A stretch of 64,000 bases of DNA. Source: Monocercomonoides exilis PA203 (taxonomy: Eukaryota; Protista; Preaxostyla). Numbering within the stretch: position 1 is the first letter of the stretch; the number at the start of each line of letters is the position of its first letter. Location: NCBI GenBank assembly GCA_001643675.2, contig LSRY02000015.1, forward strand, positions 1,302,001-1,366,000. Reading direction: 5' to 3'. This document shows positions 6,001 through 52,400 of the stretch, piece by piece. Made by a program: the position numbers and the translations under genes. The notes below the pieces were generated by a model, which saw nothing but the letters and a program-made list of their open reading frames with translations, searched no databases and was not told where the DNA came from.

Positions 6001-7418
6001 GCACCGAAAAGGTTGCTGAAGTCCCCTTTGAGGAGCTTCCGGATCTGCTCGTCTGCAGCCAGAAACAAATCGACGTAGTTGGGCTTCCCTTTCTTTGTTG
6101 CCTTGATCTGCGCAACTGAGTCGAGATCGCTGCATTTCCCGTTATCGTCGCAATGGAACGAATACCATTCTCTTGCTCCGTCTGCAAAGACAATGAATGA
6201 ATGATAAATAGTTTAAAAATAAAATTGATATATAGATAGACAGATAGATAAATGAATAACTGATTGAAAATAAAATATCACATTTCAAACAAATAAATTT
6301 TTAAGCAGAAATTATCTTTCTTATAAAATGCAAATAAAAATTACTCCAATTAAAATGAAAATAACTGTCATCTCGCATTTAATTGTCTATGGAGGAAAAA
6401 TAGCAATAAAAGTTTTGTATACACACCTTTTTTCAAAATAATAACTTTTGGTGAGTAAGGAGCACTTGGAGGAGGAATTAGCCAATATATCATTGGCGCC
6501 ATCAGCTGAAAAATTCAATGTTTGCATTTTCTCAAAAATAAGGAGGGAAAAATTAAGTAAACAAACCATCATTTCTTTCATAATTGATCCAGATAAGATA
6601 AACGATGGCAAATCAAAATTATAGCCAAATATTAATCCTTCGACAATCTTTGATGCTCCACAAAAGGGAGGACCAAGAGCTATCCACCTTTTAACATATT
6701 GTGAGACTTCATCTGGATATAAATGTGCAAAGCACTTAAACACCAAGCCGCCCATGCTATGCGTGATGACTGTAATTTTCTGCTTTCCACAACTATCAAA
6801 TGCTTCTTTAACTCGATTTTTAAGTCCTAATTGGATCTTATCAGAACATGGACTTTGTCTCCAATCATAAGGATAACCCCAAAGAGAAGTTCCAGAACAG
6901 TAGCCATTTAAATTGAACAGTTTAATAAATACATTAAAATATCCAGTTGCGCTAACCAATAAAAAATAAAAAATAAAAAAAAAAAAAAAAAATAACTCAA
7001 TAAATTACAATAGTAATTATAAAATATCGAATACCCTTTCGCAAAAGGAATTTCTGGGATTAAATTATCAATTGCATATAATCCATAATTTTGTGAAGGA
7101 GGCTCAATAACAATGTCCTGCAAAATTTTGATGTTGCTTGAGCTTAAAATTCATAAGAAAAAATACAAACTGGATCAGGATGCTCTAGCTCAAATGTCCT
7201 TTCATTGATTGACCCCATAAGATATTTGCTTGCAAGTGTGCTTCCATTCCAAAGCAATGGCCATATTTTCTGAATCTCGCTTGTTCTTCTGTTTAGAACT
7301 TGTAAAATGCTTCCTTAAAAAAAAAAAAAAAAATACATATGTAACAAAATAGTAAAAGGATATTTAATCCACCTCCTAGACCGGGAATTAACAAAACAGA
7401 GGGTGGCACTTTTTTCAT
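3024..7418 (-). CDS. LCAT-family (PF02450) phospholipase/acyltransferase, plant LCAT3/LCAT4-like, with a large low-complexity insertion
   Basis: Exons join in frame: MKKVPPSVLLIPGLG|GSILQ...|GLYAIDNL|...LWGYPYDWRQS...ITHSMGG (catalytic Ser)...WIALGPPFCGA|...PKVIILKK then a phase-1 splice into DGAREW..., continuing as the 1014-aa ORF. That ORF ends with IYGSGLPT, DGDGTVP (catalytic Asp) and GAGHKAML (catalytic His). Confidence 0.85.
5494..5568. repeat. (TCTCTT)n/(CT)n microsatellite encoding an (ER)n tract in the LCAT-like gene
   Basis: Directly visible hexamer and dinucleotide repeat. Confidence 0.9.
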
Positions 7419-24634: not shown

Positions 24635-24665
24635 AGGAATCAGCCTCGTTCAGTTCATATCGTAA

Positions 24666-25268
24666 CAGACAGCGCTTAAAATACCGGACAAAATCGATTT
24701 CACAATAACAACAATATGAATAATTCTGACAATTTTCTTCAAAATATATCTAATTAATACAAACTCTTTTTAAATACAAAACTTTCGAAATAGCTTCGTT
24801 AGTGCTCAGAGAAAATTATTTTCTAAATCTGTCCAAATTTTTTTGAAAAATTCCTTTTGTTGAATTTTCAAATACAATAAAAATTACATATTTCGATCAA
24901 ATTTTTGTTTCCACTCACAAAATTTTGCTATCATGAAAACAAAATCTTGTCAATGTTATTATTTCCATTTTTGTGAATTTTCATGATTGGGAACAGAAAT
25001 TTGATCGAAATATGTAATTTTTATTTCATTTGAATATTAAACAAAAGGAACTTTTCAAAGAAATATAGACATCTCGGAAAAACGAAAAATCCTTTTTCTC
25101 CGAGAATTAAATAATAATTTTTTTCTGAGGACAAATGAAGCTATTTTGTAAGTTTTATTTCTCAAGTGAGTTTGTATTGATGAGATATATTTTGAGGAAA
25201 ATTGTCTGAGTTATTCCTCTTGCAGTTATTGTGAAATTGATTTTGTCCGGTATTTTGTGTGATATCTG
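24666..25268. mobile_element. About 600-bp foldback/MITE-like element with ~250-bp diverged inverted arms
   Basis: The left arm (aaaataccggacaaaatcgatttcacaataac...aaaaattacatatttcgatcaaattt) matches the reverse complement of 24990-25256 along its length. No coding capacity. Confidence 0.7.
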
Positions 25269-25676
25269 TATTTTTTTTTTTTAAATACAAGATAATTCAC
25301 AATTCACTAATATAAACACTTTGTTATTAACTGGAAAATATTTTTTTTTTATTTGATATCTGTCATTAAAAAAGTGAAGATAACTATCAGATGTTTTTTA
25401 AGAATTTGAAAATTTTCCTTTTTCGAATTCGGATTATTTTTGGAGTATCTTCGACTTTAACAAATCTGTCTTTTATGAAAGCTTTTTATTAATTTAATTT
25501 AATTTATTAATTATTATTTTTTTAAACACTCAAAATTATGATTGAAAATTTCTATATCAATTGTAATTCTTCGAAAACAAAAAGGAAATAAATGAAAAAA
25601 GAAATGAAAAAATGAAAAATTTTAAAATTCATTTTTAAAAAAAAAATTTTTTTTTTTTATAAAGAATGATGAAAGT

Positions 25677-27051: not shown

Positions 27052-30000
27052 ATGTCTGAAGATCATTTATCAAATCCTGAGATTTTTTCAGAAGCTGGCT
27101 ATAAAAAGTCAACAACATCATCCAACTTACAAAATTCTCAATTTTTTATTTCAACTGAAATCAAAGCTCCAATAATTTCTTTACAATCACGCCCGAAAAA
27201 TCCGGTAGATGTTATCGCAGCAGTTGATTTTAGTTCAAGTATTATTTCATTTTTATTTCTTTTCAAGTTATTGATGATTAACTAATTAGGCATGGGAAAT
27301 GATTTTTTCTCAAAACGATAGTTTGTCAAATCTGTCTTTGATATCAAATGCTTCATAACAAATTCGTTTATAGCTCAAAGCTTCGTCAAGTGCTTATTTG
27401 TCTAGAAAAAATAATTTCTGTTCTTGGTGAAGATGACCGCTTTGGTATTGTGTTATTTTCAGGCAAACCTCGAAAGTTAATTGATTTAACATTTTTGGAT
27501 CCCAAACGAAAGGTTTTTACTTTGAATGATAAAAAATTTTGAATTTAGCTGATTCGTTTTTTTTTCTTTCATTGTTTTTTTGAAAAAAATTTAATATTTT
27601 AGGAAGTTGTTATTGATACAATTATGACATTTTCAGAACAACCACAAGGAAGTACGAATATTCTTGATGGCTTAAATGCTGCATTGGAATTACTTGAAAA
27701 TAGCGAAATGTTTGAAGCATTTTAATATTTTTGGATCTTCATTTTATTTTTCTTTTCAAATTTAATGCTTGACAACTTTATTTTCAAAAAAAACAATCAA
27801 ACAGCCCACCAAAAACAGGGGCAATGAGACATACATACATTTGGCTTTTTTCTGATGGAATGGATGATTCCGTGCACAGAGAAACGGAATTTGGAATGAA
27901 AAAGCAGTCATTACGGGTTAATGATGGAATAGATCTGATTCAAAATCGGATTATGAAAGTGCTCAATCAACATGAATGCTGCAGATATTTGTGCGAAGAC
28001 TGGACACGCAACATGAATTATGATGCTGACGATGCGGCACTATCAAATTCGCTATCTCCAAAGACATCACCAGCTGCTTTTTCTTCCAATGCATCGTCAT
28101 CAAGCTCATCATTTATGTATTCGTCTTGCACCCGAATCTTCACTTTTGGATTTGGCCAGGAACACGACGATGTTCTCTTATCTCAGCTGGCAATGATCGG
28201 AAGAGGGAACTACTTCTACATTGACACAGAAGGCTCCTTTGTGGAGGCTGTTGTGGAGAGTCTGGTCAAGAAGCAGTATTCTCTTCTGCTGGATGGCGTG
28301 TGTGAAGTGCAACTAGACAGCGGATGGAGCGTTGAGGCACTGATTAGCGGTGGTGGTGGAGGAGGCAGTGGAGGAGGAGGTGGTGGTGGAGGCAATTTCA
28401 ACGATGAAGAGCAAGGAATGAGAGGAGGAAGAGAGGCGAAAAGCGGAATGAATGCGTCGAGCGGAAAACGAAATGTGAGTGACTCAAGGAAAGTGCACAT
28501 CGGAGACATGTATCCTGGAATGAGCCAAAAGATCGTTTTGAAAGTGGAACCAGATGCTTCTTCTTCGTCGTCTTCGTCTGAAGACGAGAAAGCCGCAGAA
28601 AGCAAAGCAGATACTGTTCCTCCACTGTCTGGCTGTGTTTTGTTCTATTCGGTCAATCCACTTACAGCTCGCCCAAACAAAACACAAGTTCATCGCTTCA
28701 GTTATGACTTCAATGAAATGGACGAGATGGTATGCACTTCAGACTGTCCTGTTGGATGTTTTGCTGTTTTGAAAGCAGAATTTGATGCAATTTGGATTCT
28801 TTTCATATTTCAGAAAATTTGTTTTTAATATAAATATACTTCGCTTTTTTTCTTTTTCTTTTTTCTTTCTATTTTTTTAACTGATTATTTGTGCCTGCTC
28901 TTATTATAAATATATTTATTTATTTACATCAATTCGCTTCAGTCACCCAGCAGTTCTCTTTACAAGAGCATAGAGATCAGCGACGCCATCACACGACAGT
29001 TGGTTCAGCTGAAGCATTCGTCAAAGTCAAAGAATGCAGACGGCTCAGCTAACCAGAAGAACTTGCGCTCTGGTGCCTTTGCGATGGTCTCGAGAAGCAT
29101 GTTTGACGGGATGGATGCATTTGATCCACAAGCACTAAATGAGTTGGCTTCTTCTTCTTCAGCTTCATCTGCATCTGCCTCATCTTCTTCTTCAGGCGAC
29201 TCAACAAACCAACTTTCGCGTTCTTCTTCTTCTGCAAATTTTGCCGAGCCATCGCCCTGGAACAAGCCGGGTGCGTTGCTTATGTCAACTGCCAATCCTC
29301 TGAATGAGCTGATTCAGCAGACAACAGACGGAGTAGTGAAGCATCTCGACGAGAGAAGGGCAACTGGATTTGACCCCCGGTCCAAGCAGAAATTGAGCAT
29401 ATACTCACAGATCATTAACCAGCAGAGCGAGAAGAGAAAAGGTATGTTCTTGGAGAAAATAATGACAATAACAATAATAATTTCTATTTTAAAATGCACA
29501 TGCCGAATTATTTTGTTTTTTGATAACTTTTTTTGATAAAAAGATTATTCGAGATTTATTTTTATTCATTTTTGTTGCAAAATCACACACTCTTTTTTTT
29601 TAAATTTCTCTTCATCAAATTTTTCAGCCTTCACCACCGACCGTCCCCCTTCCACCATGCGTCGTCCCTCTCAGCCACCACCTCCTCTGTCTTCGTCTTA
29701 TCTGTCTTCTTCGCGCTACCACAGCCGCATGCAGCACAGACAGCATTCATCTGGTGCCTCAACGCGCTCCCGAAACTCGCCCATTCCAGGCGAGTCGCGG
29801 GCCGCTACGCCTCTTCTTCCGATCTCTCCGTCTCAGACGCTGGACGAGACAAACAGCTCGGTCTTTGGGATGAATCTGACAGGCACAGCGCAGTTTGACA
29901 AGGACAGGCTGCTTGTGACTCCGAGGGAGCAGCAGATGACACACGAGGAAATCGCCTCGGTGATTCTGGGCTCGATCAAAGACGAGCAGGAGACACCGCC

Positions 30001-33000
30001 GCTGATCAAGGACACAGTGAAAGCAACGACTGAGGTGATGTGCGAGAAGGCTGTGAAGGAGCTTCAGGAGGAGATGAAGGAGAAGTTGCAGGAGCAGCTG
30101 AAGGAGGAAATGAAGGAGGAGATGAAAGAAGAGATGAAGGAAGAATTGAAAGAAGAATTGAAAACTGAAATGAAAGCAGAATTGAGTGAGAAAATGAGAG
30201 AAGAGATTGAGCAGGAGATGAAGAAGAACTTGACTGATGCTTTGGAAGAGGAGCTGGCGAAGGAGAGGCAGAAAAGAGCAGCGATGGAGGAGGCATATGC
30301 AATGGAGACAATTAAAAAGCAAGTGGAAGAAGAAGAAGAGAGAGAGCAAGACGACCAGCTCAGAAAGATGATAACAGCAGATTGGATGAGCAGAATGAAG
30401 AAAGAATGCATCGATGCGATCAGTGAGATCGAACATGTGAAGGAAATTGTGCTGAAAAGAGCAGGGCTGAAGAGGAGAAAAGTAATGGCCTGTTCGCCTG
30501 GAGAGGCACAGCAAGACAACGACTCGTCTGATGGCAATCGAATGCGCGTGAAGGAAAGCAGAGAACGGAAGCAGGCACGCAGCTCTCATCGAAGCTCACC
30601 TGACAGCGAAAGTGATTACTTGTTTGTGGATGGGGATGAGTGGATGGATGATCCAGATTATGGAGAAAGCGATGAAGATAGCACAACCAGTGCGAGGAGG
30701 AGTGGAAGGAGCAAATCGGAAAATGAGGGTAAAAATAATGGAGAGACAAACGGAACGACAGAAACACCAGCAGATTCTGCTTCCGCTCCCAATTCAAAAA
30801 CAGCATCACAACCAACCTCTGAAGCTGTCACTGAAAAAGCTCATTCGCATCTTCCAATCATCATCACTTTTGCAATCATTTGCTTTGTTTTGTTCTTTCT
30901 GTCGCTGGTTTCCTTTATCGTTGCTGCACCCATGCTGTTCAGCGGTACTGTGGTTTCTGGAGGCAATGCATTTACTCTGAAGAAGCCAATCGAAATGGTT
31001 AATGGCGAGTCAAGTGTGATGCTGGCATACAGCGAAAATGGCGCTCAAACATCCGCTTCAAGTGAGAAATTTGCGACAACGACATTGTCAATACCTCCTC
31101 CTTCTTCATCTTCGTCTTCTTTATTGTCTTCTCTTTTACACGAATCACATTCAAATTCATCTGATTCTCTTTCCACTTCATTTCTATCAAAAATTTTGCA
31201 TTTCTTAAGAAATAAAAGAAACAGTACTTTTTCTACTGATTCTCATCTTCCTACTCAATTCACTTCATTACCAGAATCTGTTCCTTCAAGACACTCACCA
31301 CACTCACCACATTCACCATCACATCATTCATCCACCACACCTTCTTCTTCCTCTGCATTCTCTATCAGCACTTCAATTCTTACACCTTCTCTCATTGCAC
31401 CGCCAAACACCTCGTTAAACATCTACTCGCCGATCAACATGAATGGCTTCTCAATTGAGAATACTAATATTCTTTCCAGATTCAGTGGTGAGATGGAGCC
31501 AAACCAGACACTTCGCTGGAGCGTTGGAAGCGGAATCATCACGTCTGCCGAGCAATTATCGTTGGTAACTGAAAAGCAGAATACTACAAGTCATCAACTT
31601 TCATTCACACAAAACACAATTAAAGCTGAAGCTGTTAGCTTTGCGTCAAGCGAAGGAGATGAAATTACTCAGTCTCAAACGGAAGCAGTCACACTTGCAT
31701 CGCCACTGATTTTACAAGGAGAAAAGCAAACGAACGGATATTTCTCGAATAGCGGTGATATGAATGAAACAGCAAGAGCGAACATAAATTACGATAAATC
31801 CATTAAAAATACTACCAAAAGTCCAAATGCTCATTTTCTCAATGCACAAACAGTTTTGACTGTCAATGGAAATACAGAAATGAATGGCTACGTGAACATC
31901 AACGATGAAACAGATAGCGAGGGAAATATCTTAAATAAAGGAAATCTGAATGTGAAAGGAAGCGCAGACATTCGGGGTGATACGACTGTTGCGGGAGACA
32001 TCAACACATCAGGAAACATCAACGCATCAGGAAATATCAGCACGTTAGGAAACATTGAAGGTCAAAAGGATCTGAAAATTAAAGGAGCTGCGGAATTTCG
32101 AAGTATTAGCACGGAGCAATCACTCGTTTCAAATGGAGAGTGTTCATTCAAACAGAATGTGTTCGCTTACTCTGCAATAAATGTTGGATTTGAAAGTCAA
32201 AGCGCTTCTTCTGGGTTTGAAACGGTTATCTCATTAAAAGGCAAAGCCAGTGCTGGAGATAGTGATATATTGACTGTGAAGGGAGATGCAGGGTTTGAAG
32301 GGAGCATGGGGATTGGAGAAGGGCTGGAGGTGGGAGGAGACGTGGTTGTTGGGAACAGCAGCGCCGGAGGAGGAAGCACTCTATCAGTGAATGGGGGAGT
32401 GGAGATCAAGAAGAGTGGAACAACAGGAAATGGGAATGCTAATGGAGAAGTTAATGGGAATGAGAATTCTAATGGGGATGTTAATGGGGTGCTTTCAGTT
32501 GAAGGGAAGAGCACTTTGAGTGGAGGAGCAGAGATTGGAGACCAACTGAATGTGGGCGTTTATTCATCTTCGACGTCATCAAATTCTTTTCATTCAATAT
32601 TTTCTGTTGAAGCTGTAAATGCATCAGATAGTACTGGAGCTTCTTTTGTCAAAGGTGAGGCGCAGTTTTCTGGAACATTTAATATTGTCAATGTTGTTGA
32701 TGACGCAAACCCTGACAATATTTTGGAGAAAGCTCACCTAAACGTCGAAGGGCATACAACCCTTGGGGATTCTGTGGATGTCAGCGGGACTTTTAATGTT
32801 GCTGGAATGTCTCGTCTGGCAAATGGCCAATCGATTCCTTCCTTCTTCAAAGGTGTCGTCACAAGCAACCCGCAAATAATTGCTTGTGGAAACTTTTCAG
32901 AGGCCTCGTTTTTGATTCAAGGGCAGCGTGTTGAAGACAGCGTTTCGTATCCTTCTTTGACAGATGTAGCATTTCTTGTCGATGGCGGAGTGGCAAGACC

Positions 33001-33363
33001 TTGTATGCTAGTTTTTATTGAATAGCTAATTTCAAAGTTTTTTCTTTTGCTTTTTCTTATTTGAATCAATTTGTATATATTTCTTTTTTTGAAATATTTA
33101 AAGGCCAAAACAGAGCCAATGGAATTGTAATGATCTGCAATAATTCAGGTGTTGAATCCACGACCGAAGACAAATGCAATGTCACAGACAATACTGTGCT
33201 TTCAGTGAAAACAACTGCAGCCGAATCATTCCTGGCTCTGTCTGTTGCAGGATTCGGAGACAACCCGTTGGATATTGGCTTTGGAGAAGAGTGTGCAGCC
33301 ACTACATATAATTCCAATCGCAAACAAAACAAAAAGCAACAAAACAAGAACAGCCATAAATGA
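27052..33363 (+). CDS. vWA-spike protein A: N-terminal vWA (MIDAS), coiled coil, single TM helix, C-terminal beta-helix/fibre-like repeats; 8 exons, about 1800 aa
   Basis: All splice junctions keep frame. VDVIAAVDFSSSM (DxSxS), GSTNI, IWLFSDG, IFTFGFG; (KEEM)n coiled coil; TM IIITFAIICFVLFFLSLVSFIVAA (~30855-30930); 6-residue repeats GDTTVA-GDINTS-GNINAS-GNISTL-GNIEGQ. Last exon 33104-33363. Confidence 0.8.
32251..32571 (+). repeat. 321-bp perfect inverted repeat, copy 1 (coding, in vWA-spike gene A)
   Basis: By base-by-base reading it is identical to the reverse complement of 34734-35054. Encodes AGDSDILTVKGDAG...QLNVGVYSSS. Confidence 0.97.
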
Positions 33364-33913
33364 AGGATCAATATTATTAAGCATAACAAAAATGCAATTT
33401 TGAAGTTAAGCATTTCGTAAAAGATATTCGTTTTGGTTTAAAAGTTTTTTTTCCGTTTTTCGTTGATTAATTATGTTTTGTTTATTGAATTATTTCCTCA
33501 TATTTTTACGTTTACGTCTTATGAATAAAACTAAATGAAAAGATGATTTATTAACAAAAAGTATAAAATTACCACTGAAAAGAAAACATCTTCTTCAAAG
33601 AAAAAGGAGTGTTCAATGAGATTCCTGCAAAAAATATTTACTGATGTAATTATTAGAGATTGAAGATGATCGATAATTAACAACAAAACCACATGCGATG
33701 ACTTTCGCTTCAAAAAACTTAAAAAGTTACAACTATCATTAAAAACGAAAGATATTAATAACTTTCAAAACGAAGCAAAAAATAAATCTTTAAACAAACA
33801 AAAAAAAAAAGCCAGATGAAGTGTTTTGAACGTAATCATTTTTTGGTTCAATGATAAAAATTTGTGAAATGAAAAATCTGACAGAGGACATTGCTTTTTG
33901 AAAGCATTATGAA

Positions 33914-36900
33914 TTATGATCCATTTTGTGAATCCAAATGATTTGAGTCATCATAACTTGATGGAATAGGCTCTGTATCAATAATATCTTCCTCTTCGTT
34001 ACTATTTGAAGAAACCGTTAAAGGTTCAACATCTGCTCTAATATCACTGATTCCTTCTTGCTCTTCAGAAAATAGAGTTGTTTGGATGATTGTGGAGTGG
34101 TCAGCAGAGCACGTGAATGAGATTACACTCTCGTTGGACATAGTTGTGTTGAAGTTGACTGGTGGTGTTCCACTCTTCGATATAACAGGTTCTGCATCAG
34201 GATCATTAACAATGACAGCAGCAGATTCAGTCTGCGGTCCATTTACAGTATGAAACGTTGTTTTTGTCACGTGGAGTACATAAGTCCTTGGCAAATGCGA
34301 AATAGAAATCTTTACGCTTCCTTGTGAGAAATAATGTGAAAAGAAGTTGCTCAGCGACTGAAGACTGGAGAAATCAGACTTCACAGTAAATGGAACACCA
34401 AAGTGAACAGCACCAGTAAATCGAGATGTTCCTTTGACAATTAAATTTGCATCTTTGTCCTCTTCCTCTGTTGCAACAGCATTCAAAATTACGCTTGCGC
34501 CAAATGTATTCCCACTTCCATTAGGAATGTTAATTCCAACTGAAAGAGTGTCAAATACCTTTGTTCCTTGCCCAATCACTGCAATGCCATCAACGAACAA
34601 GTCTCCCGCAACAGAGTTTCCATCAGCATCTGTCCCATTTTTCAGACGTGCACAACCTTCCACAACAAGATTCGCACTGTCTTGTTGTGTAAAATCAGGC
34701 TTTGAATTCAGCTTGATAACAGGTTTGAATGTTGAAGATGAATAAACGCCCACATTCAGTTGGTCTCCAATCTCTGCTCCTCCACTCAAAGTGCTCTTCC
34801 CTTCAACTGAAAGCACCCCATTAACATCCCCATTAGAATTCTCATTCCCATTAACTTCTCCATTAGCATTCCCATTTCCTGTTGTTCCACTCTTCTTGAT
34901 CTCCACTCCCCCATTCACTGATAGAGTGCTTCCTCCTCCGGCGCTGCTGTTCCCAACAACCACGTCTCCTCCCACCTCCAGCCCTTCTCCAATCCCCATG
35001 CTCCCTTCAAACCCTGCATCTCCCTTCACAGTCAATATATCACTATCTCCAGCATTTGCTAAGTTTTGTGAATTCGACGAATTCTTCTCAATGTTATTTG
35101 AAAGGGTAGATCCTGTAGATTGAATTACAACATTCCCAACAAAAGAAGACATTCCATTTACAGAAAGAATGTTTCCGCTGGAAGCTCCACTGGATCCTCC
35201 GAGTGATGTTGTTCCTTTTACAATCAAATTTGCATTTGTGTTTGAGTTTGGATTTAGTTCAATCACAGAAGCAGAAGGCGATGCTCCATTGCCTGATGGC
35301 ACAGACACTTTCAGTGAATCAGTTACAGTAACTTCCTTGCTTATTGTAGCCTTTCCTTTCACAGTAAGGTCATTTCCAATTGTTGTATCGTTTACAATCT
35401 GCAAATCATTTGCTGAAAGCTTGTCGTTTATTGAAAGCTCATTAACAGCAGCTTTGCCATCAACTGTAAGGTCTTTGGTGATGTGAGCAGTTCCATTAAC
35501 CTTCATCGAAGCAGCAAGTTTTCCAGAAGCATCATTACTCACTTCTACAGACCAAGCAGAACTGAATGCTGGAGATTGCCCGTTTGTGTGCTGCCCAACA
35601 TTCAAAGAGTCCGATATCTTTGCTTCACCCAGCGCCGTTAATGAATTTGTGGTCAAAGGATCTTCAACAGTAAGTTGTTTGATAGTTGTTGCACCTTTCA
35701 GACTTGTCGTACCATTAACAGTTAAAGAACCGCCAACCAAAACGTTTCCGTTCACTTGCTCGTTTCCTTCAATAGTCACATCTGAATGTATTGTCGTAAC
35801 GCCTCCCACATCAACAGAAGAATGGAGAATCGCTTTGCCATCAACCGAAAACTGTCCTTCATTTGCATTTCCTTGCGAATCCGTGCTATTCATTACATGA
35901 GCGCTTCCTCTGACAACGAAGTCCTCTGCTTCCTCGTCTGAGTTGAGTGCCACAACCACGTTCCTCTTAGTTTCTGTGAGTGAGCCAACAAGCAATGGAC
36001 CGTTGACAAATGTGTTGCGGAAGTTCTGATTATCCGCTTCGAGATAAGATGCATGTATCTGAAAGGCTGTAAAGTTGTGCGCATAAACCATTCCATCCCC
36101 AACTTCAAACAGATGCTTCCTTTCAGAATCATCCGTAGTTGTAGCATGAAATTGTTCATTGCTTCTCTGTGTTGAAATATATTTATTTGGCTGATTACTC
36201 AAATCCCATTCTTTTCTCGGTGTTTTCGATGCTGTTTGCTTATACGAACCAGACTTTGTACAAGCAAGCGGAAGTAAAGCAGCTGACATGGCTTGCATAG
36301 AGACAGACGCAGCACTTGAGGATATATCGCCAACAGTCAAGCCAGAAGCACTTAGTATCTTTGAACTGCCAATCGGAGACAGAACAGAAGATATCGACAG
36401 CATCCCTCCTCCAAACAGCAACGCCCATCCAACAACCACAGCGCTAATAACAACTACGCTAAGCACAATCCACAAGATCACACACAGTCCTGTTCCAAGC
36501 GACGACTGCCTCACATTCTTGTCCCACCATCGGAAGAAACATGTTGGCTGCTTTTCCGAGTCCTTATTCAACTGTGCGAATGGAGATGTGGCAGAGTCAC
36601 CAGAGGGAACGGGAGTTGTCTGAGCTGCCGAAGAATCCATTTCTCCGTTACGATCGGCAGCGGAAGGTGTAGGCATTGAAGGAAACTCCTGATCTGGATC
36701 AGCCTCAGACGGCTCAAAAAGCGAGTCGTCTTCACCCTCCATTGAGCCATTACATTCAGAGTCGTTTTCCTCGTTTGCATCATCATCGAGATCGCGTGGC
36801 AGAGGTGCTCCTTTCAAACGTTGCATTGCACGTGGTTGAGGAGCGAATTGTGGCTCAGTGTCGAAATGCTCTATTGTTTCGTCGTCTCCAAATCCATTGC

Positions 36901-39900
36901 CGCCATTCACCTCGCTTCCTTCATTACTTTCAGTCTCGTCGATCAACTCAGCATGCAACCTCCCGTTTTCTGTGCGGCTTTCAGGCGAGTTTCCGTTCAC
37001 TTCTTGCTCTTGCAATTGTCTTGATTTGGATGCTTCATCTTTATTTTGCTTGTTTCTGTTGTTTCTTGCACTCTTTGTTCTGCGTGACGACTTTGGCGCT
37101 TTCTTCTTTTGATTCTGACTTGTTTGAAAAGACCTTCCTTCCATTTCAATGCTTCTTTCCATCTCATCAGCGCCATTCGCTTCTTCCTTTCGCTCCTCTT
37201 CCAATCCTTCAAAGCGAAGAAGTGGATCATTCACCCCGAATGCTTCAGGGCCCAGCGAAAGCTGCGCTTCCAAAAGCATCTTCCTCTCGTTTGCGCCTAT
37301 TCCTTCGTTCTGCTTCATCAGCACATCTGTCAGCTCAGCATTATTTCCTATTGCTGGAGAGCCAACGTTCACAGCAGTGCAAGAGGATTCAGTTGTTTGG
37401 CCTTCTCCTTCTTGTCCCTTTGAACCATTTGCATCTCCATTTGTATCTTCCTTGGAGTCTTCCTTCGCATTCATCATCTTTTGCTCTCTGCGTTGCCTTG
37501 CAAGTCTGCGCTTCTGCTGAAGCGATGATGGAATCAGCGTCGGTGTTGACAATAGCTGCCCTTCCATTTTCTCTCTTTGAATCTCTGAAGCCTTCTTTCT
37601 AGCAGCATCATCATCATCTTTCTCTTCTCTTCCTTCATTGTGATTCACTTCCTCGTCCTCGTTCTCGTTTTCAGGCATTTCTGGGTTCTCCTTCGTGCTG
37701 TGCTCTGAGTTCTCATGCAGCATCGTCACTGATCCCTCGTCTGCATTGCCTTCTTCGTTGTCTTCATCTGCTTCATTAGCCTCCTGTTGTGTGCTTTCGT
37801 ATTCAGAGGCAACAGGCGTGGAGTGGACGGTGTTGGAGGAAGGAGAAGAGATTGGCGTGTCAGAACTAACAGTGCGTGAGGTGAGTGGTGGTGTGGCTGT
37901 GGGCTGAGGAGTTGCAGAAGCAGGCGAAATGGCTGCCTTTTGCATCTCAGATGAGGAAGAGGAAGAGGAAGAAGCGGAAGCAGAGGAGGAAGCGGAGGAA
38001 GAAGAAGAGGCAGAAGAAGATGTGGGGTAATCTTGTGAAATGTTTGCGTGAGATGAAATGAAATAGTCAGCAGATGAAGGAGAAGCGAGTAGAGGGGCAT
38101 TTGACATATACAGAAGCGGGCCATCCAACTCTCCACAAAGATCTTCCATTTCAATTGCTCTGCTAAGTCCATCGTCAAAATCGGAAGAAGAAGAAGATGC
38201 AGAAGCAGAAGCTGATGAAGGATGATTCAGATTCTGTTTGTTATTCAGGTTTCCGTTTCTTTTGCTTCTTTCATTCCGAAACTCTGCAAATGTCTTTGGC
38301 TTTTTGTGAACAGACACCACTTCATTGCCATCAGCTTCATTCTCTTTGTTTCCATTCCCTGTTCCTTTCCTCGCTCTTCTCTGGTTCCCTCTATTTCTTC
38401 CACTCCCCCCTTTTATTCCATTCCTTCCTTCTCCTCCTTTCCCTCTTTCTCTCCGAACACCTTCCATCTCCTCCATCAGCAGTGAAGGCGACGTCTGCGC
38501 CTCTCTGTCATCCAGCCCAACTGCTCCAACTTTCGCATACCGCAGCCGCAGCCTCCTTCTCTTCTCTCTCCGCTTTTTCGCCTCTTCCCGCTCGTTCCGC
38601 AGGCGCTGGCTGTCTTCCTCGTCTCTCATCAGCAGCAGCTCGTGCATTTCCTGCCTCTCCCTCTCCCTCTCTTCAAACGCCGCCTTCTCCTCCTCAAACT
38701 CCTCCCACCGCTTCTCCTCTTCCTCTTTCATCTGCTGCTTCACTGACGCAAACACCTGCCTCCTGCTGTTGTCAATCGACCCCATCAGCCTCTCCTTCAG
38801 CTCGCATTCTTCGCGATGCATCGCTGCCTGCTCAGCCAGCTCATTCAGCAACTCCTCTTCTTCTGCCCGGCGCTGCTGAAGCCTTTGCGTGTTGTTCAGC
38901 AGGCGCTGCCTGTATTGAGCGTCGTGCTGCTGCTGAAGATGAGTTGTTGCTAAGGAAAGAGCATATGATAGAAAGGGGGCTGAGGAAGGGGAGAAAGAAG
39001 AGTCGATGTTTGCCTGGGAAGCGAGGAGGGATTCTGGTGAAGAAGAAGAAGAGGAGGAGGATGAAGGAGAAGAAGAAATAGCTGCAACTGAAGAGAATGT
39101 GGACAAAAATGGTGCGTCTGTTGAAGAAGAAGAAGAAGAAGCAGAAGAAGAAGCAGAATATGGTTGCGGAGCTTGCTCATCATTTTGTGTGTTTTCCTGT
39201 TGTTCTTGTGATGCTCCTTCATTGCTTTCGTTGCTTATTCCTTCAAATTCCTGCTCATAATCCAGCGGCATTGCTGTCGGCCTTTCTGAATCTGACGTCA
39301 AACTGTCTCCTCTTTCGCCATGGCCACTTCCTGTTTGCTGAGCTTTTCTGCTTTTCCCTCTTCTTTCACTCTGTGTTCTCATCGAGTCAGAAAACGAACT
39401 CTTCACTCGCTTTCTCTTGTCTTTTTCCTTTCGAGTCGATTCCAACTTGCTTTGTGACATTTTATTTCTTTTCCTTCTTTCACTCTTGTTCTCTCTTTCC
39501 ATCTCAGCCACTCTTTCCCTGCTCCTCTTCAGCTCCTCCTCTTTCTCCCTTATCTTCCACAGCGCCCTCTCAATCTCCCTCTCAGCCTTCGCTCCCCTCT
39601 GCCTCAGCTCCTCTAGCTCTTCCACCACCCCCGCACACTTCGCCACAAACGACGCCAGCAGCGCCTGCCCAGCCTCTTCCTCCCACTGCCCCATCTGCTG
39701 TGCATACCCCTCTCTCATCTCCCTCTGCAGATCGTCCAGTGCTGCCCTGTGTCTCAGCGCTTGCTCCCCTGCAAACGACAGGAGCACCCCACGCGCCTGC
39801 CGCTCCACCGCCCGCACCACAGCCTCAGAAGAGCCATCGCTGGCAGCAAGACTTCGACTGCGCAGGGGAGAAAAGGGGCGGAATTCAGGAATGTCTGCCA

Positions 39901-42041
39901 GCGCCTCCTTGTTGAATGTGCGCGCCATCCGGCTGCCGATGCTGCGGGTGCTCAGCTTCAGCCCTTTTGTGCCGAAGTTGGTGGAGCGAGATTTGATCAT
40001 GGAGACTGAGGAAAGGGAGAGGAGGGAAGGGTTGTGGAGTGTGGGAGAAGGGAGTGGGGGAAGGATGTTAATAAGTGAATGAGTGAGTGAGTGATTGAGT
40101 ATATAATTGATTGATTGATTGAAAATATGATTGAGAAAAATTCCAGTTAGGATATTAAAGAATAAGAAAAGGCATTTAAAAAAAGAAAAGAAAAGAAAAG
40201 AAAAGAAAAGATAGGATTCACACATCCGCCCAGCATTTCAGCTCTCTGAGACGAAAAAGCAGTGGAATTGTCTTTTTGCCCTGCTTTCAGGTCTTTGAAT
40301 TCGTTCATCACACGAGTCGTAAGCTGATACTCAGCCAGAAGATCGCTAGGCAGCATCTGTTTGTGAAAGGAATAGAAGAAGAAGAATTATAACAATGAAA
40401 GAAAATGAGGCATTGATTGACACAGATTCAAAAATATTCAATTAAAAAACATTGGAAAGATTATCACAACACGCAAGCATTCAAGTGTATTTCAAAAAAC
40501 AATCAAAATCAATTTTTTTATTTAAAAGAAAGAAAGAAAAGAAGCACATCCAGTTCAACAATCAGAAAGAAAGAAAGAAAGATAGAAAGAAAAGACCGAG
40601 TTTAAAATAAGAAATCACATTCACACCTCGTAGTCATTCAGCTTCACGAGCATCACCTCCGTCTGGTCCTGGAGCACCCCGCCTTCAGTGAGGTTGACGT
40701 AGCTGACTTTGACTGTGACCACCGCGTCCTTCGCGCCGAGGCTCACGTCCCACATCACATTCGCCAGCATCTCGTGGTACACATCGCCCAAATCAGCCAC
40801 AGCCACCGACTCCACATCCGGCGGCCCGATCTGCCGCACCACCTCCGCACCGTCGCTCACCTCGATCTTCGCCCGCACGTTCTGCGCAACAAGCGTCAGC
40901 TTCCGGTTCAGGCAGTCGGCGAAGTAGTGGATGAACTCCTGCTCCTGCTTCGTCTGCTCCGTCGAGCGCACGTAGTAGTATGTGCCGTGCCCGTACTTCG
41001 CAAACTTGCTCATGACCGTGTCGTCGTTTTGGGACCCGAAGCCAAACGTGTTGATGGAAAACCCGCCGACAATGCGCTCGTCGTAGGAGTGAATGAGCTC
41101 TTTGATTTTTCTGTCCAGCGTTTCCTCCGAAAGCGACCCAATCGGCCGCTTGAGGCTGGGATCCCAGTTCTCCCGCACAATAAAATCCATTCCGTCTGAA
41201 AACATCCATATGGATGCTGAGCGTCCCTCTGCATTTTCATTTCTTTTATAATTTCAACAAAGTTGATAATTTTCATCAAATGCACATTTCAAAAATAAAT
41301 ATACAAAATAAAATAAAATAAAATAATCATCAACAATAATTAGTGTTCGAAAAGTTAAAAAAAAAAAATTGCGCAAACCTTTCTGGTGATGCCAGTTCGT
41401 CGAGAGCTGCTTGCAGCGCTTTCATTAGATTTGTTCCTCCATCTGGATGCGATATAAACTTTGATAATGTCGCAGAGACGCTCCACTTAAAAAAAGACAT
41501 TTCAAGTCAAGCATAATGGACGACAACATACCCTGTTTAAAGAATCCATTGGAGCTAAACCAAAAAGTTTTTTTGGTTCAAGGGCAAATAGATAAACCTT
41601 TTTTTGGAAAAAAAATAGTTTTGAAAGATAATACCCATATGAGTTTATAATACAAACTGAAAAACGATCTTGTTCCCCAAGGTAAGTTATTAAATGTTGA
41701 AAGCAATTCATGACTTGGGCTAATTTGTTTTTTCCTTGAAGTGAAAAACCGCCAGTCATTGATTTTGATGTGTCAATCATGCAAATTACGTCCATAGGCG
41801 CTCTGCGTTCTCCAATATCTTCAATAATCGGAGCCTTCAAGGTCAATGCGACTGTCCTCATATTTTTCTTTGGATATTGAAATATTATAAAAATATCAAT
41901 TTGAGTTTTTTAATGATGTCATACATTGTATTTTCCGGTTATCCCCGAAGAAAGCAATAAGTTAAATAATGAACCTTGTGATGCATATTCTTCTGAAGAA
42001 TTTTCTCCTTCTGGAAGACTATTTTCATCTTTTTCATCCAT
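33914..42041 (-). CDS. vWA-spike protein B: N-terminal vWA (MIDAS), coiled coils, single TM helix, long beta-helix/fibre-like repeats; 7 exons, about 2450 aa
   Basis: MDEKDENS...|...RAPMDVICMIDTSKSM...DRFS|...|GGTNL...|...SIWMFSDG...INTFGFG...GHGTYYYV...|MLPSDLL...|FSMIKSRS..., entering the 2103-aa ORF. TM LCVILWIVLSVVVISAVVVGWALLF (~36415-36490). Repeats SSVDVG-GVTTIH-SDVTIE-GNEQVN-GNVLVG-GSLTVN. Confidence 0.8.
34734..35054 (-). repeat. 321-bp perfect inverted repeat, copy 2 (coding, in vWA-spike gene B)
   Basis: Reverse complement of 32251-32571; same peptide and same reading frame in gene B. Confidence 0.97.
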
Positions 42042-45240: not shown

Positions 45241-46722
45241 GAGGAAGAGGAAGAAAATTGAAAATAAGTGATGATGCAAGTTTTGCTTAAAACCATTGAG
45301 ACACAGCAAAAGTCGGATGCTTTTTGAATATGAATGCTCAGCCAGCTCATAAGCTTTGGTAAAAGAGTCACATCTGCCAACCACTCTCAACAAATAATCC
45401 CAAGCAATCTGTTTTTTCTCTCTTTCAAGCTCATGTTAAGCATTGTCGGGTAATGCAGTATGAAAAACAGATGGCAGAAGTCATGAATGTCATCGTTGAA
45501 TGCAATCCAAGCAAGAACAATCTCAAAACTTCTGAATCTTTCGCGAAATGAAAAGAAGGCTTTTCTTTCTATTGCATTCCTGTTCATAGTCATTCTGTAT
45601 TCATTCAAATATCACCTTTAAATAAAAATGATTGAAATAAAAAAATCAAACCATCTTTTTGGTATTTAAATATTTTCCCATCTCAATGGATTGGTAATTA
45701 TCAGCCCAGCTGGTTTTCTTGTTCTCCAAAATAGCCTCTTGCCACATAAAAAAAAGACAACTGAACAATAAATGACTGGTATAAAACATCATCAAAAGCA
45801 GAGAATCCTTTATGAAGCAGGCCAGGATAACAGATGAAAACACACGTTCTCCAGATTAATAAGAAATGTACTCTTTTTCAAAGACTTATTCAACACAATG
45901 TTTTTGCTGATGGCTTTCCTGCAGGATTCGTGCAAAGGGCAAATGCGATTGTTGTTGAGGCCTGCTGAGTGTTTTGCTCAACTCGTTTCCTCCATTGTCC
46001 AACCCCCAATTCCCTTTCCTTTTCCACAAAATCATCCTTCCCTAAAAAAATCACGCAAAACAAGCTCTGCTCAAAAAATATGCCAAGAGAAACACATTTC
46101 CCACAAAATGAACAAGCAGTTCAATTCAATCTTTTTGATATTCTGCTCGCTTTTTCTGCATCTTGCTTGGATCATTTTTCATTAAAAATATCGAAGTCGA
46201 TGTTGCATCATATGTTTTTCATTTTACAACCAAGTTCAAATGTCATGCAATTTCCTCCACCAATTCACTTTTCGAAAGCAATATTGGAAAACAGCCACTC
46301 ATTCCTCCGTCTGTTAGCAAAATTCCTATCCAAATGCATTGCTATAACTCACATGTACGCATCTATGACTGTGCATTCAAGCGTTTTAACATGCTCTGGC
46401 TGTTCAAATCACCAATAAAAAATCATCACTTATAAAATTATAGGTTGGTCACCCTTATTTATTTGCTCAAAAACAAGATTATTTTGTTTCATAGATTCAC
46501 TTGCTTTAAGGCATAAATCACAAATGGCAAAAGAGGTTTCGAATCCAATGTTATTTAAAATTTTTGATTTGTTATTTTTAATTCTTTTGATTCGAATATT
46601 ACACAACATTTCTGAAAAACGAATTTATTTGTTGTTTTGAAATCATTTTGCCATTACCCAGCCACCTTCAATGAAACAAACATTTCTTGGTATGCAAAAT
46701 ATTATAAAAAACGATTGCTCGG

Positions 46723-48120
46723 ATGATGAATTGTTTTATTTCCAATTTTCAAGAAAAACTGCTGCAATTGGAACAATTCACTGACGCTGAACAGAGACAA
46801 ATAATCAAAGAAATGAATGAAATGATTGATGTAATGAATAAAGGCGAGTTGCGTTCTATTTTAAATGTCAGAATATTCAACAAAATTCATGAAATAATTG
46901 AAGAAAAGAAAATGACTTTGGAGAATGCTATTCTGTTGCTAAAGCATGTTGGATATTGCAAAACTTTGAAAGATGCTTGGGTTGATGGTTTTGAAGAATC
47001 TTTATTGAAAAAAAGACTTCAAAAGATGATTTTTGAAGAAGAAAAGAAAAAAGAAGAAAAGGATGATTATCTTCTTGTTGACCTTTGTGAAAGTTTTGTT
47101 TTACTGAATGATGAATTCACTTCAACAGAATTTCTTTCAATTTGTGTGCCTTGCCTTCTGAAAGTTGCATTGAGGAAAGAGGAAATAGAGGAAGTTCAGA
47201 AGGAAGTGGAAATGGCTTTGTTGGCGTTGAGCAGCATCAGAGATAATGTGTGTGAAATTCAATTTCCTTTTTGTCGTTATTGAATCGTTTTCTCCTTTTT
47301 TGATAAGGATATTGAAAAAGAACTTTTCTTGGATGATATGACAGAAATTATGAAATATCATCAGGAGCATCGCAACCTCACTCGCCTTGCCTATCAGTCT
47401 GCTTGGCAGTTTTTAATAAACCGATTATTCACAGACAAACGTTTGGAAGATATGATTGTGAATGAACTGCATTTTGGAAGAGAGGCATCAAGAGAGCTGG
47501 AAGAGCTTTCAAAGAGTGTGGATTGGAAGAGAAAAAAAGATGAAAAAGAAAGAAAAGAAGCGAAAGAAGCGTTTATTATCACGGAATGGCTCAGCGTAAT
47601 TAATTGTTGCTTATTTTGGCTTAAATCATGGAACAAAGAATTTGTTCTGCTTTTTAACATCATTGTTCAGGTATATCGAGCATCAAGTGATAATTACAAA
47701 GAAATTAGGAAGAAGTGTATTTTTTCATTTGAAGCGGTGGCAGATGATGTTGCTGTCAAAATTAATTTCTTGTTGGACGGAGGAGCAGTCGATACCGTTT
47801 TGGAGGGGATGCTGAGACGAACGTTGAATGAAGGTCAAGCATGTGAGTGCTTGCAATTCTTTTTGAATCTTTCAAGGAAATTGAAAAAAGAAGAGGAAGA
47901 TGAAAAGTACAAAGAGGAAAGAAAGGCAACCAGAAGAAAGATATTCGAAAAGATGGAAGAAGAAGGATATGAAGATTGTATTGAGAGTTTTCATGTAAGT
48001 TTTGACTTTTTCAACAAAAATTATGCTGTTCTTAATAAATTATCGTTGTATATTTCTGATTATTTTGTGAATGTTGAACCAAATTCTTTTCTTCTAATTT
48101 TGAAACACAAAAATTTTTAA
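46723..48120 (+). CDS. Member of a lineage-expanded alpha-helical (ARM-like) hypothetical protein family; 2 exons
   Basis: The two ORFs join via a 60-bp intron (47248-47307): ...ALLALSSIRDN|DIEKELFLDDMTEIMKYHQEHRNLTRLAYQSAWQFL...EKMEEEGYED. The motif set is recalled from the large Monocercomonoides multicopy family. Start codon uncertain. Confidence 0.7.
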
Positions 48121-48365: not shown

Positions 48366-48776
48366 TTCTTCTTTAAATATGAAAATAAAAAAAAAAAAAG
48401 ATTATTTTTTGATGAATCCTTTTTTCGTTGCCATCAAAATCTTTGATTATCATTTTGTTTTTTTAATCGTTTCAATAAATGAACACATTGAATATGTAGG
48501 ATAAATAAAAAAGGCTAAAAAGAATCTTCACCAAAATTTTTCATCATTTGGGATCAAATATTTTGCTTTATGAATTTTGTTCCATTTAACTCAAACATAT
48601 ATTTATCTCAATTCTTGAACTTTTCTGTTATTATTTGCATTGTTACGGTTGATTTATAATGAAATGATTCCAGAAAAAGTTTGGAACAAATCTCAGTTTT
48701 TTTCATAATAGCAAAAATTTTGACCAATTTGATTATGTTTATCCATTATTAAAATATTATTTCGATTCATGAAATA

Positions 48777-49480
48777 CACCAAAAATTATTCAACATCGAA
48801 AAAGTTTAATTCAAGATCGAAAATTATTATTCGAAATCGAAAATATTTAATTCAACATCGAAAATTCTTGATCATCAAAAAATTTGAAAAAATTTTATAA
48901 TATTCATGCTCATGTCAGTTTCTATTCTTTCAGTTATTGATCTCAGAAATTTGTCGATTTCATTTTGAAAAATATTTTTTGATGTTTTTTTTGGTATATG
49001 ATTGTGTGAAATAGTGGAAATAGGATAAAACTGAGTGATAATTAAACTTTTCACATGTGTTCAGGAGATTACAAGGAATTTAAGAAAAAAATAAAAGTGA
49101 TAGGATAGTTCATGATCTTGTTTTGTGCACAAAAAGACAGAATTTCATCTCATTTATTGAATACGAAATGTTTTGAATTCATATATTGCATTGGAAACTA
49201 AAAAAATAAAACATTTTCAATATTCAAAATGAGAAAAGAATCGATTGATATCAGTCTTTATCATAGAAAACAGTCGTTCAAAACGAAAGAAAAACATTTC
49301 CAATAAATAAACATTTGCAATTGTCAACATTTACGTCAATAAAATTTCTTTGGTTTTGACTTGAATAGAAATTCTGAACAAATTATCTTCTTTTTCGATT
49401 TTGAATTAAACATTTTCGATGTTGAATTAAATATTTTCGATTTCGAATTAAACTTTTTCGATCTTGAATAATTTTTGGTG
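48777..49480. mobile_element. About 700-bp non-autonomous TIR element (MITE): ~90-bp TIRs each made of four ~21-bp subrepeats, flanked by TA
   Basis: Left TA|CACCAAAAATTATTCAACATCGAAAAAGTTTAATTC...; right ...GAATTAAACTTTTTCGATCTTGAATAATTTTTGGTG|TA. Subrepeat core TTC(A/G)AnATCGAAAA occurs four times per end. No internal ORF. Confidence 0.8.
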
Positions 49481-49492
49481 TAATTCTTTTAA

Positions 49493-52400
49493 ATGAAAGC
49501 TATCCATATTATTTCTGCATATTTTCTTCTTATAACTCTCGATTGCATTTGCGAAGGAACTAAGCTATCCGCTGTTACTGAAACACAAACTTTGATATTT
49601 GATGTTTATAATTCAACCTTAAGGTTACAAAAGCTATCCTTTTTGACAGTGAAAAATGAAAGCATAGCATTCTTCAAAAAAAATTTATTTTCTGAACTTG
49701 TAAGTTGCATATTCATTCCTTCTTCATTGGGTATTAACAGTCCATTTTTTACTTTTGATGGAACCTCACATTTTTACAATTTTACAATCTTAACAACGCA
49801 AACTCAAACTGTTTACACGCCTATTATAAGTGAACATTGCTTAAATTCTAAAGCAAGGTTTTTTACAGGAAGTACAGTGTCGTTTTTTGATTCGAATTTT
49901 TCTTCGTTAACAATTGCATCTCCATGCTCCTTGCTTTCTTGTTATGAAGTTAATTCGATCTATATATTACACTGTGAATTTAGTAATATTAGTTCTTCTT
50001 CGAATCATTATGCAAATGAAAATTCTTCTTGCAATATTTCAATGAGCAGTTGCATTTTTTCTGCTGTTGAAAATCCATTTTATCACACAATTATTGATTC
50101 ACGATTTTCGGAACAATTAAGCGCTTCAAATTCATCTTTCGAACGATGTGCTATACGATATCAAAACCGCACGTACTTGACAGGAGGAACTAAATCATTT
50201 CTTGATATCACCTTTACATTTAACGGAGGCTATACCCAAGGAGGGGCTATCTGTGCAAAAGGCAGTTCTGATGTTGCAATTAATAATTGCTTGTTTGATA
50301 AATGTAAGGTTACCGGAAATGAAAATAATACTGGAAGAGGTGGAGCTTTATTTTGCGAAAATGGAAAATGTGTTGTTTCTGACTCAATTTTTACAAATTG
50401 CACAGGGAGCTATGCAGATGGAGCTGTTTCTTTTTGGTTTGGAACGAAGCGCGTTCTCCATAAATGCCGAATTGTTGATTGTAGCGGTCCACAGCACTTT
50501 GGAGGAATGAATTTCGAACAAGCCCCTGAAAATGAATCTCAAATATCTGAATGCGAATATTCGAAATGCTGGTGTAGCATCGATGGCGATTCTTGTAGAG
50601 GATGTGGAGGCGCCTTGGGAATAGTTAATCCACCTCCACATCTTTTCATTACTAGCATAAAATTCCAAAACAACAGGGCTGTGAGACATGGAGGCGCAAT
50701 CATGTGCTTTTTGGCTTTATCAGGTTCTTCATTTCGATGTCGTTTCCTTTTTTTCAGTAACAATTCAGGGCGGAGTCAAGGAGGAAGTGATATTTACACA
50801 GATCATAATTTTGCTGGAAAGTTGGATTCTACTCAATTTGAAACATGCTATTCGTTTTCTGCGGCACCTCGCTTTGTCTACTGCAACAGCGATGGAAGTT
50901 ATCCAGATGCTGCTAACAAGCCAGATTGGCTGCCGACTCCGAGTTTTCCAAACATTTACGTGAAAAATGGAGGACATGATACAAATGATTGCGGTAATTC
51001 CACAGGCAACAAGGAGTGTCTCACATTAAAATTTTCAATAACACGCTGGACTCCAATATTTAACCAGAAGATTATTGTGAATGGAGGAACTTACACTGAA
51101 ACCTCACTGGACATCTCAGACAGAGTGATAGTGGCAGACTCCCAAACGTCAATTCCAAAGATTGTCTCAAAAATTAGCTCAGGAACATTTTGCACGATCA
51201 CAAACGGATCATTTTCCGCTTCGAATTTAATTTTTGTGCATAACTCGTCAACTTCTTCAAATGCGATAATGTTTTCGATAAGCGAAGAAGATGGAGTACT
51301 GAAGCTGATCAAGAGCAAAGTGACGGCCGAAAGCGGACAAGGCACTTCCTTTTCTAAGTCTCTTTTTGTGATTAACGATGGACATTTAATCCTCGACCAG
51401 ACAACTATCACGGCAATAAAAGCTTCGAAGCCTGTTTTATCTCTTATTTTTCCGAGGGAATTTACTACAACGCAGTCAGTGTTTTCTCAAATCAGCCGAA
51501 CAAATGGAAATGGAAGTGTATTGGAAGCAACACTGGAGGCAGGACAAATATTACATTTAGCAAATTTTTCTCTTTCTGAATGCAGCTGCAGTGAAGGAAA
51601 TGGAGGAGGAATGTGGGTTTATATGAAAGCTGGCTCATCTTTCAGACTGGGAAATGCTACTGGCGCATCTGTTTCTGGCAGAGAGGCCAACGCGAATGAG
51701 ATCATGGGCTTCACATCGTGTGCAGCACACGGCGGATCGGAGCCGAAATATGGATGTGGAGGAGGAGTGTTTCTGTATCTGGAGAATGGAGCGACAGACT
51801 TTATATTCAAAGATGTGTCGTTCAGTTCATGCACTGCAGAAAGTGGGAAGAATATATTTGTGAGCGCTAATAGCCTTTCCACAGTTATAACCAATACAAC
51901 TATTGCCTTCGGGCCTGACCTTTCCAGCAATGATGGGCTTCGTGGATATGAAAGATTATCATTAGGAGCTACATTCGCCATTCCTTTACTGATTTACCTA
52001 AAGCCATTTGCAAGTCCTGCTTGTGTTGGTGGCTCATTCAAAGCAGATATCAATCGGTGTGGATTTCCTTCGTTCCCATGCTCAACAATTAACTTTGCAG
52101 TAACTACGCACTTTTATGCAACCAAGGTGGAGATCTTGCTTGTTTCTCCATTCAGTTTCAATGCAGAACTGAAAATGGAAACGAATGAATGGGACATTTC
52201 AACAACAGCACAGGGAACAAAATTTGAAGTCAGTTTAGCTTCACCAACGGCACAAGCAGGATTTATTGAATCATCCATTTTATCGACAATAACCAACATC
52301 ACATTTTCTGTTCCTCAGACGCTCACAAACAAAGATGCGCTTTTGCTTTGTTCTTCAGATACTTTGAAAGTTATTAACTGCGGATTAACAGCAGCTACAA

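Follow-up and report, generated by a model that had tools for sequence, protein, structure and literature searches.

A perfect inverted repeat shared by two convergent genes

In the 64,000-nt stretch of the Monocercomonoides exilis PA203 genome analyzed here (contig LSRY02000015.1, positions 1,302,001 to 1,366,000 of the forward strand; hereafter the window), two genes, A and B, lie tail to tail on opposite strands and share one coding block of 321 bp, present as an inverted repeat (Table 1). Most probably, recent gene conversion between the two inverted paralogs has kept the block identical as an island, and it is not a programmed switch; counted together with a variant in which the block was copied by a single template switch, gene conversion accounts for the locus with high probability.

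A first-pass annotation of the window had described a perfect, in-frame inverted repeat bracketing the alternative C-terminal tips of two "spike" genes, and had proposed that the segment between the copies inverts and so exchanges the tips. The repeat itself was confirmed. The left copy is the reverse complement of the right copy at 321/321 nt, both are read in the same phase within their open reading frames (ORFs), A on the plus and B on the minus strand, and the identity is also found in sequencing reads. The first mismatches flanking the perfect tract are at positions 32250 and 32572; with its edges included, the repeat extends over 330 nt at 99% identity (mismatches at 32248, 32250, and 32572), and 10/30 positions match in the 30 nt beyond each edge. 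The repeat is far beyond chance; the longest of the other inverted repeats that the window contains measures 164 nt, at 80% identity. A blastn comparison of 25.5–33.5 kb with 33.7–43 kb gave no other opposite-strand matches longer than 55 nt, the best of the shorter ones being of low complexity, which bears out the earlier statement that the two genes do not align elsewhere as DNA.

Read support for the repeat

Eight public runs cover the region, and four of them, here called X1 to X4, were examined. All were examined as contigs, which break at the repeat and therefore cannot show its orientation. X1, X2, and X3 derive from one sample, possibly the source of the assembly, so that X1 is not independent; X4 is an RNA run from a different study. 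In X1 the repeat forms a single contig of exactly 321 nt with 0 differences and a depth of 181, compared with depths of 93 in the left flank, 107 in the inner segment, and 90 in the right flank. A depth of 181 against 90–107, together with one unbroken contig, indicates two identical copies and gives no sign of a third, although this DNA copy number rests on one sample. Flanking contigs stop 30 nt inside the repeat, all four junctions are present in X1 to X4, and the last 262 nt of the block were recovered in X4 with 0 differences. The repeat is real in the reads, in two copies. The inner segment seemed over-represented in the DNA of X1 (depth 107 versus 90–93), but this did not recur in X2 and was rejected.

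An alternative reading is that assembly or polishing equalized two merely similar stretches. The reads largely refute this reading, which we regard as most improbable. That X1 to X3 may be the assembly's own sample speaks for it, as do single-base indels within the block in X2; these indels, however, fall within G runs and do not occur in X1, where the 321-nt contig of double depth branches exactly at the block edges, and the same letters are found in X4 from the other study.

Genes A and B are divergent paralogs

Outside the block, A and B share 22–30% protein identity and, although they cannot be aligned as DNA, they can be aligned as protein along their length. The earlier claim that the genes are not alignable elsewhere consequently holds for DNA and fails for protein, where the full-length paralogy had been missed. 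The similarity is strongest in the VWA parts (36/122 residues identical, z 10.6), followed by the stalks (36/127, z 6.4), and weakest in the tips, which are colinear (41/185, z 3.4; at least 1 of 300 shuffles scored higher). From their shared architecture, these colinear alignments, and the like position of the block, A and B are, judged by sequence, full-length ancient paralogs arranged tail to tail with the block at an equivalent position.

In both genes a VWA-like domain and a coiled-coil or low-complexity region precede a single predicted transmembrane (TM) segment, which is followed by a beta-repeat ectodomain. The VWA assignments are weak, with Pfam matches below the cut-off (E 0.003–0.02). 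An upstream exon of gene B contains a DTSKS motif, which we take to be of the DxSxS type, a MIDAS motif. The block begins 461 amino acids (aa) after the TM segment in A and 478 aa after it in B, and from its end 230 aa (A) and 273 aa (B) remain to the C-terminus. The C-terminal beta-repeat regions carry 15 (A) and 12 (B) N-glycosylation sequons and are predicted to be extracellular.

Gene A had previously been taken to end at 33025. A splice joint in X4 removes an intron there, and the frame continues past it to a stop at 33361–33363, so that the gene ends at 33363. This last intron of A is the one confirmed by RNA; the other A introns and all B introns were placed at frame-keeping GT..AG sites. 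Host genes are intron-bearing and use the standard genetic code, as seen in the SAS-6 gene at window position 58877. RNA contigs of X4 cover both genes on both sides of the block, and gene B appears to be the more highly expressed, contig depth being a poor measure of RNA level.

Relatives of the ectodomain

Three protein searches for close relatives of A and B returned 10, 4, and 0 weak matches and no close relative. A search of representative sequences gave 35 matches, all of them to repeats and none with E below 1e-13. The best ectodomain match (E 4e-13) was to repeat-rich proteins with bactofilin-like repeats, some of which carry YadA or S74 chaperone domains; a weak match to a PHROG tail-fibre family (E 0.003) was also obtained, and the Pfam matches of the ectodomain itself fall below the cut-off. 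Two predicted folds were all-beta and of low confidence (predicted local distance difference test scores of 37 and 48), and a PDB fold search with them gave nothing at E<=0.001. A PDB sequence match to IsdB (E 0.02) was rejected as chance. Scans of metagenomes yielded 0/330 candidates, with no match in metagenome contigs to the block protein or to a 31-nt pattern from the block, and Atlas matches (0.85) stayed below the threshold for a lead. The "spike" label of the first-pass annotation is weakly backed, by distant repeat matches and low-confidence folds; a "fibre-like beta repeat" is a reasonable lead and not a result. Among the protein collections searched there was no close relative of this combination, in which a single TM segment separates a VWA-like domain and coiled coil from a possibly fibre-like beta repeat downstream.

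Origin of the identical block

At residues that are identical between A and B outside the block, different codons are used in 24/41 cases in the tips and 20/36 in the stalks, whereas the 321 nt of the block contain 0 differences (upper 95% bound 0.9%). Selection on the protein is thus insufficient to explain the identity, and the DNA must have been copied in recent times; since the two inverted copies lie 2.2 kb from each other at an equivalent position, this points to gene conversion. The first-pass annotation had named gene conversion as an alternative to its switch, and once the colinear paralogy is recognized it is the alternative that fits best. We propose that when one copy suffers a break or a fork stalls in it, the other would serve for repair by intrachromatid fold-back. 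The copying would be of the non-crossover type and would halt where nucleotide homology stops, leaving a perfect island amid diverged surroundings. Such an island may be the remnant of a region that has been converting ever since the genes duplicated, and a need of both proteins for one common module is a possible reason for its retention. Now and then a crossover would turn the inner segment around and exchange the tips, as a rare by-product. The edge differences just outside the perfect tract are synonymous (Ala, Ser, and Thr codons), a pattern that weakly fits an eroding island. Together with the equivalent position and a G-rich composition confined to the block, they would favour repeated conversion.

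The block has a composition (G 0.39, C 0.10) unlike that of its flanks in both genes. Its G content at codon positions 1 and 2 is the highest among the 95 windows compared, and the G-rich composition begins and ends at the block edges in A as well as in B. Near its 5' end the block contains a canonical four-G-run motif of the G-quadruplex type; leaving aside its own twin, the window has just one other such site. The motif is not significant (chance 0.07 with flank codon usage and 0.40 with the block's own codons), and a G-quadruplex as trigger was rejected on these values. No hairpin folding of the block was detected (z +1.26), nor a clear internal dyad within the 321-bp repeat. As a separate observation on composition, silent-site base choice tracks the purine content of neighbouring codon positions (r = 0.79 over 95 windows), and the resulting polypurine/polypyrimidine coding tracts can mimic conversion signatures.

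Several points weigh against gene conversion as proposed here, or are neutral to it. The protein, representative, and metagenome searches gave no orthologue with which identity within a species could be set against divergence between species. GC at fourfold sites is not raised (22/59 in the block versus 194/705, p=0.13). An excess of G (20/59 versus 115/705, p=0.002) had been a candidate signature of GC-biased conversion and was rejected after a context control over 95 windows, in which the G-only excess matched the expectation from the surrounding amino acids (residual z -0.9 to +0.5). With no rise in GC and with G explained by context, long-term repeated conversion is left without compositional support. 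In addition, the edges fall to background identity within 6 nt, which a one-off template switch explains equally well; the block matches the stalks of A and B equally (81 versus 82), so that no donor can be named; and conversion shares its intermediates with crossover and is so compatible with flipping.

In the template-switch variant, 321 bp would have been copied once from the neighbour during replication or repair, by way of a few bases of microhomology at the edges, and the product would have survived since it was in frame, at the same position, and left the protein intact. We hold this to be clearly the less likely course, yet one to be taken seriously: it accounts for the sharp edges, with 4/6 and 3/6 bases matching just outside and background identity beyond, and it needs no long-lived homology between genes that are 22–30% identical. 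An equivalent landing position within a repetitive ectodomain is, however, better expected from prior homology, the G-rich composition is confined to the block in both genes, unlike an arbitrary slice of one donor, and the block is no closer to either gene. Entry of the block into both genes from a third source, either another gene or a mobile module, would agree with its composition, which departs from the flanks in both genes and tops the 95 windows for G at codon positions 1 and 2. Such an origin is nevertheless very unlikely, as a third near-identical copy is at odds with the X1 depth and the unbroken contig, no metagenome contig matches the 31-nt pattern or the protein, and the beta repeat of the block is of one kind with that of the stalks.

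Does the inner segment invert?

As the earlier annotation had noted, the 2162-bp inner segment holds both tips and both 3' ends; with the repeat copies in the same phase, a crossover between them would yield two intact chimeric genes. A working flip/flop switch would make use of this geometry, with recombination in the repeat inverting the 2.2 kb often enough to give mixed populations that include A-stalk/B-tip and B-stalk/A-tip proteins; given the higher apparent expression of B, flipping would then change the dominant surface tip. We consider such a switch unlikely. The common frame, the 3' ends lying within the inner segment, and the perfect identity are what it would need, homologous tips of similar length would make the chimeras plausible proteins, and long inverted repeats support inversion without a local recombinase in the spnIII locus (PMC6620402) and in yeasts (PMC6692504). 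Against it stand the X4 depths, which are 6.6–11.5 for stalk A and 9.3 for tip A, and 18 for stalk B and 19.9 for tip B. A 50:50 mixture predicts 12–15 for both tips, and a fit puts the share of inverted molecules at -0.32 to 0.03. These values, contig depths from one of four RNA runs, are a weak hint that fits the assembled pairing, with which an inverted minority of 10% is still compatible.

The tips also resemble their own stalks more than the other stalk. Motif sharing between stalk and tip scored 83 and 96 for the own pairs (z 6.6 and 6.5, reached by 0/500 shuffles) and, when each tip was paired with the other stalk, 65 and 70 (z 2.9 and 2.8, reached by 9 and 5/500). Tip and stalk of gene B also share a 26/30-nt match across the block. 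The assembled pairing is accordingly the old one, although flipping that began recently is compatible with this. Furthermore, there is no silent cassette, A and B both being complete and covered by RNA, and no recombinase family was found when 27 ORF segments of the window were scanned with Pfam, a scan that genes split by introns or unlinked to the locus could escape. The last result agrees with the earlier remark that no recombinase is visible in the window. On these four counts (recombinase, cassette, RNA pairing, and likeness of each tip to its own stalk) the proposed tip-swapping switch is unsupported, and the limited evidence points to one dominant arrangement. A recombinase-free eukaryotic shufflon, in which inversion exchanges the tips of two co-expressed surface fibres and may start from the G-rich end of the block with its quadruplex-type motif, is likewise unlikely. 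If true, flipping would amount to a eukaryotic in-gene inversion that builds chimeric surface proteins.

Comparison with known systems

In the phage Mu G and P1 C segments, the R64 shufflon, and the sap locus of Campylobacter fetus, inversion joins a constant N-terminus to alternative C-terminal tips. In Mu, P1, and R64 this takes place at short recombinase sites with a dedicated invertase, and one constant part is expressed. The present locus resembles Mu G, P1 C, and R64 in geometry only, in that an N-terminus could be fused in frame to alternative C-termini; it differs in its 321-bp repeat, in the lack of an invertase among the scanned ORFs, and in having no silent cassette. It is not a member of the recombinase-driven shufflon family.

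The spnIII hsdS locus of Streptococcus pneumoniae has an in-gene inverted repeat of 333 bp, close in length to the one described here, and shuffles domains without CreX or RecA (PMC6620402). As in spnIII, domains lie between oppositely oriented genes, here as a potential for exchange only. The hsdS system has one active and further silent copies, three classes of repeat, a recombinase within the locus, and measured switching, whereas at the present locus A and B both have RNA coverage and the contigs, which break at the repeat, show no switching. Flip/flop systems that use a single inverted repeat have evolved at least 10 times among yeasts; in the mating-type system FF1 of Ogataea polymorpha, repeats of ~2 kb bound segments of 19–138 kb, and whole genes are moved to a silenced site (PMC6692504). 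FF1 is likewise eukaryotic, with one inverted repeat that includes parts of genes, but inversion there makes no chimeric proteins. The identical long inverted repeat of such flip/flop systems is present here. Calling its orientation needs spanning long reads, as described in a further report (PMC10028968).

The closest precedent is the pair Dlxa and Dlxb of Capitella teleta, closely linked tail-to-tail paralogs with a converted tract of 150 bp and no rise in GC (PMC3199776). Both pairs are linked and divergent overall, with one short converted tract lacking a GC rise. The Capitella tract covers the most conserved domain, the homeobox, and an intron, whereas the tract of A and B, 321 bp long and perfect, is a low-complexity module well inside the ectodomain, between flanks with 22–30% protein identity, and a flip would exchange a tip of 230–273 aa. 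In mammals, BMP8A/B, DDX19A/B, and TUBG1/2 show mosaic concerted evolution, demonstrated across species and accompanied by raised GC, for which shared binding or structural regions have been proposed as the reason (PMC2720389). These pairs also consist of two copies with one part homogenized and the rest diverged; their case rests on cross-species proof and raised GC, whereas ours comes from one genome with no GC rise. Three marks of mosaic conversion were found here, namely paralogs, a tract at an equivalent position that is identical at silent sites, and two copies, by depth in one sample, 2162 bp apart; raised silent-site GC, a supporting feature, was not found, and it is absent in Capitella too. 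A literature search, thin on subscription papers and supplements, gave no eukaryotic in-gene inversion that makes chimeras and no description of this locus. With the probability given above, we place the locus as mosaic gene conversion of a known type, affecting a pair of proteins that is itself undescribed. Such a conversion island would be a clean and extreme example, 321 bp of perfect identity between genes only 22–30% identical elsewhere, and it raises the question of what keeps one module identical.

Table 1 Coordinates of genes A and B, the 321-bp repeat, and associated features (window positions)
Feature	Position	Strand	Description
Left copy of 321-bp block	32251..32571	+	Coding in gene A; Gly/Val/Asn-rich beta-repeat module
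Right copy of 321-bp block	34734..35054	-	Coding in gene B; identical, same frame
Inner segment, 2162 bp	32572..34733	.	Tip A (one intron), both 3' ends, tip B; part that a crossover would invert
30-bp tandem duplication within block	32429..32488	+	86% match; identical in both copies
Four-G-run (G-quadruplex-type) motif, 5' end of block	32281..32311	+	Coding strand; twin at 35024-34994, minus strand
Gene A	27200..33363	+	VWA-like domain, coiled coil/low complexity, one TM segment, beta-repeat ectodomain; start not fixed
Gene A, modelled exons	27806-28729, 28943-29441, 29628-33002, 33104-33363	+	1685 aa, open
Gene A, further VWA exons	about 27.2-27.7 kb	+	Upstream of the modelled exons
Intron in tip of gene A	33003-33103	+	GT..AG; splice joint 33002-33104 in RNA run X4
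Predicted TM segment of A	30857..30940	+	Single; hydropathy scan
Gene B	33914..41861	-	Architecture as gene A
Gene B, modelled exons	41223-40627, 40356-40224, 40005-33914	-	2273 aa, open
Gene B, further VWA exons	up to candidate ATG 41861	-	DTSKS motif in upstream exon
Predicted TM segment of B	36400..36490	-	Single; hydropathy scan

Other features of the window

Two further inverted structures were observed. At 24665–25269 lies a near-perfect intergenic hairpin of 600 bp, with arms of 164 nt (80%) and 113 nt (81%) and a 16-nt centre, which looks like a miniature inverted-repeat transposable element or a foldback element. An inverted pair of ~95 nt at 88% with short AT-rich internal repeats (48771–49486) is possibly a non-autonomous transposon; it ends just before a single ORF of 2903 aa (49493–58204). 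This ORF, for which no Pfam family was found above the cut-off, probably encodes a large surface protein; its translation shows a likely signal peptide, a TM segment near the C-terminus, and a tail of acidic and basic residues. A two-exon gene at 46708–48120, also with no Pfam family above the cut-off, presumably resembles a large repeated oxymonad family of hypothetical proteins. Toward the start of the window, a methyltransferase exon (1007–1495) is followed by an LCAT-family gene (3024–7004; PF02450, E 6e-21) that seemingly runs on into a long low-complexity ORF. Near the opposite end, the gene for the centriolar protein SAS-6 (58877–61817; PF16531, E 8e-9) has a long Ser/Pro-rich C-terminal exon.

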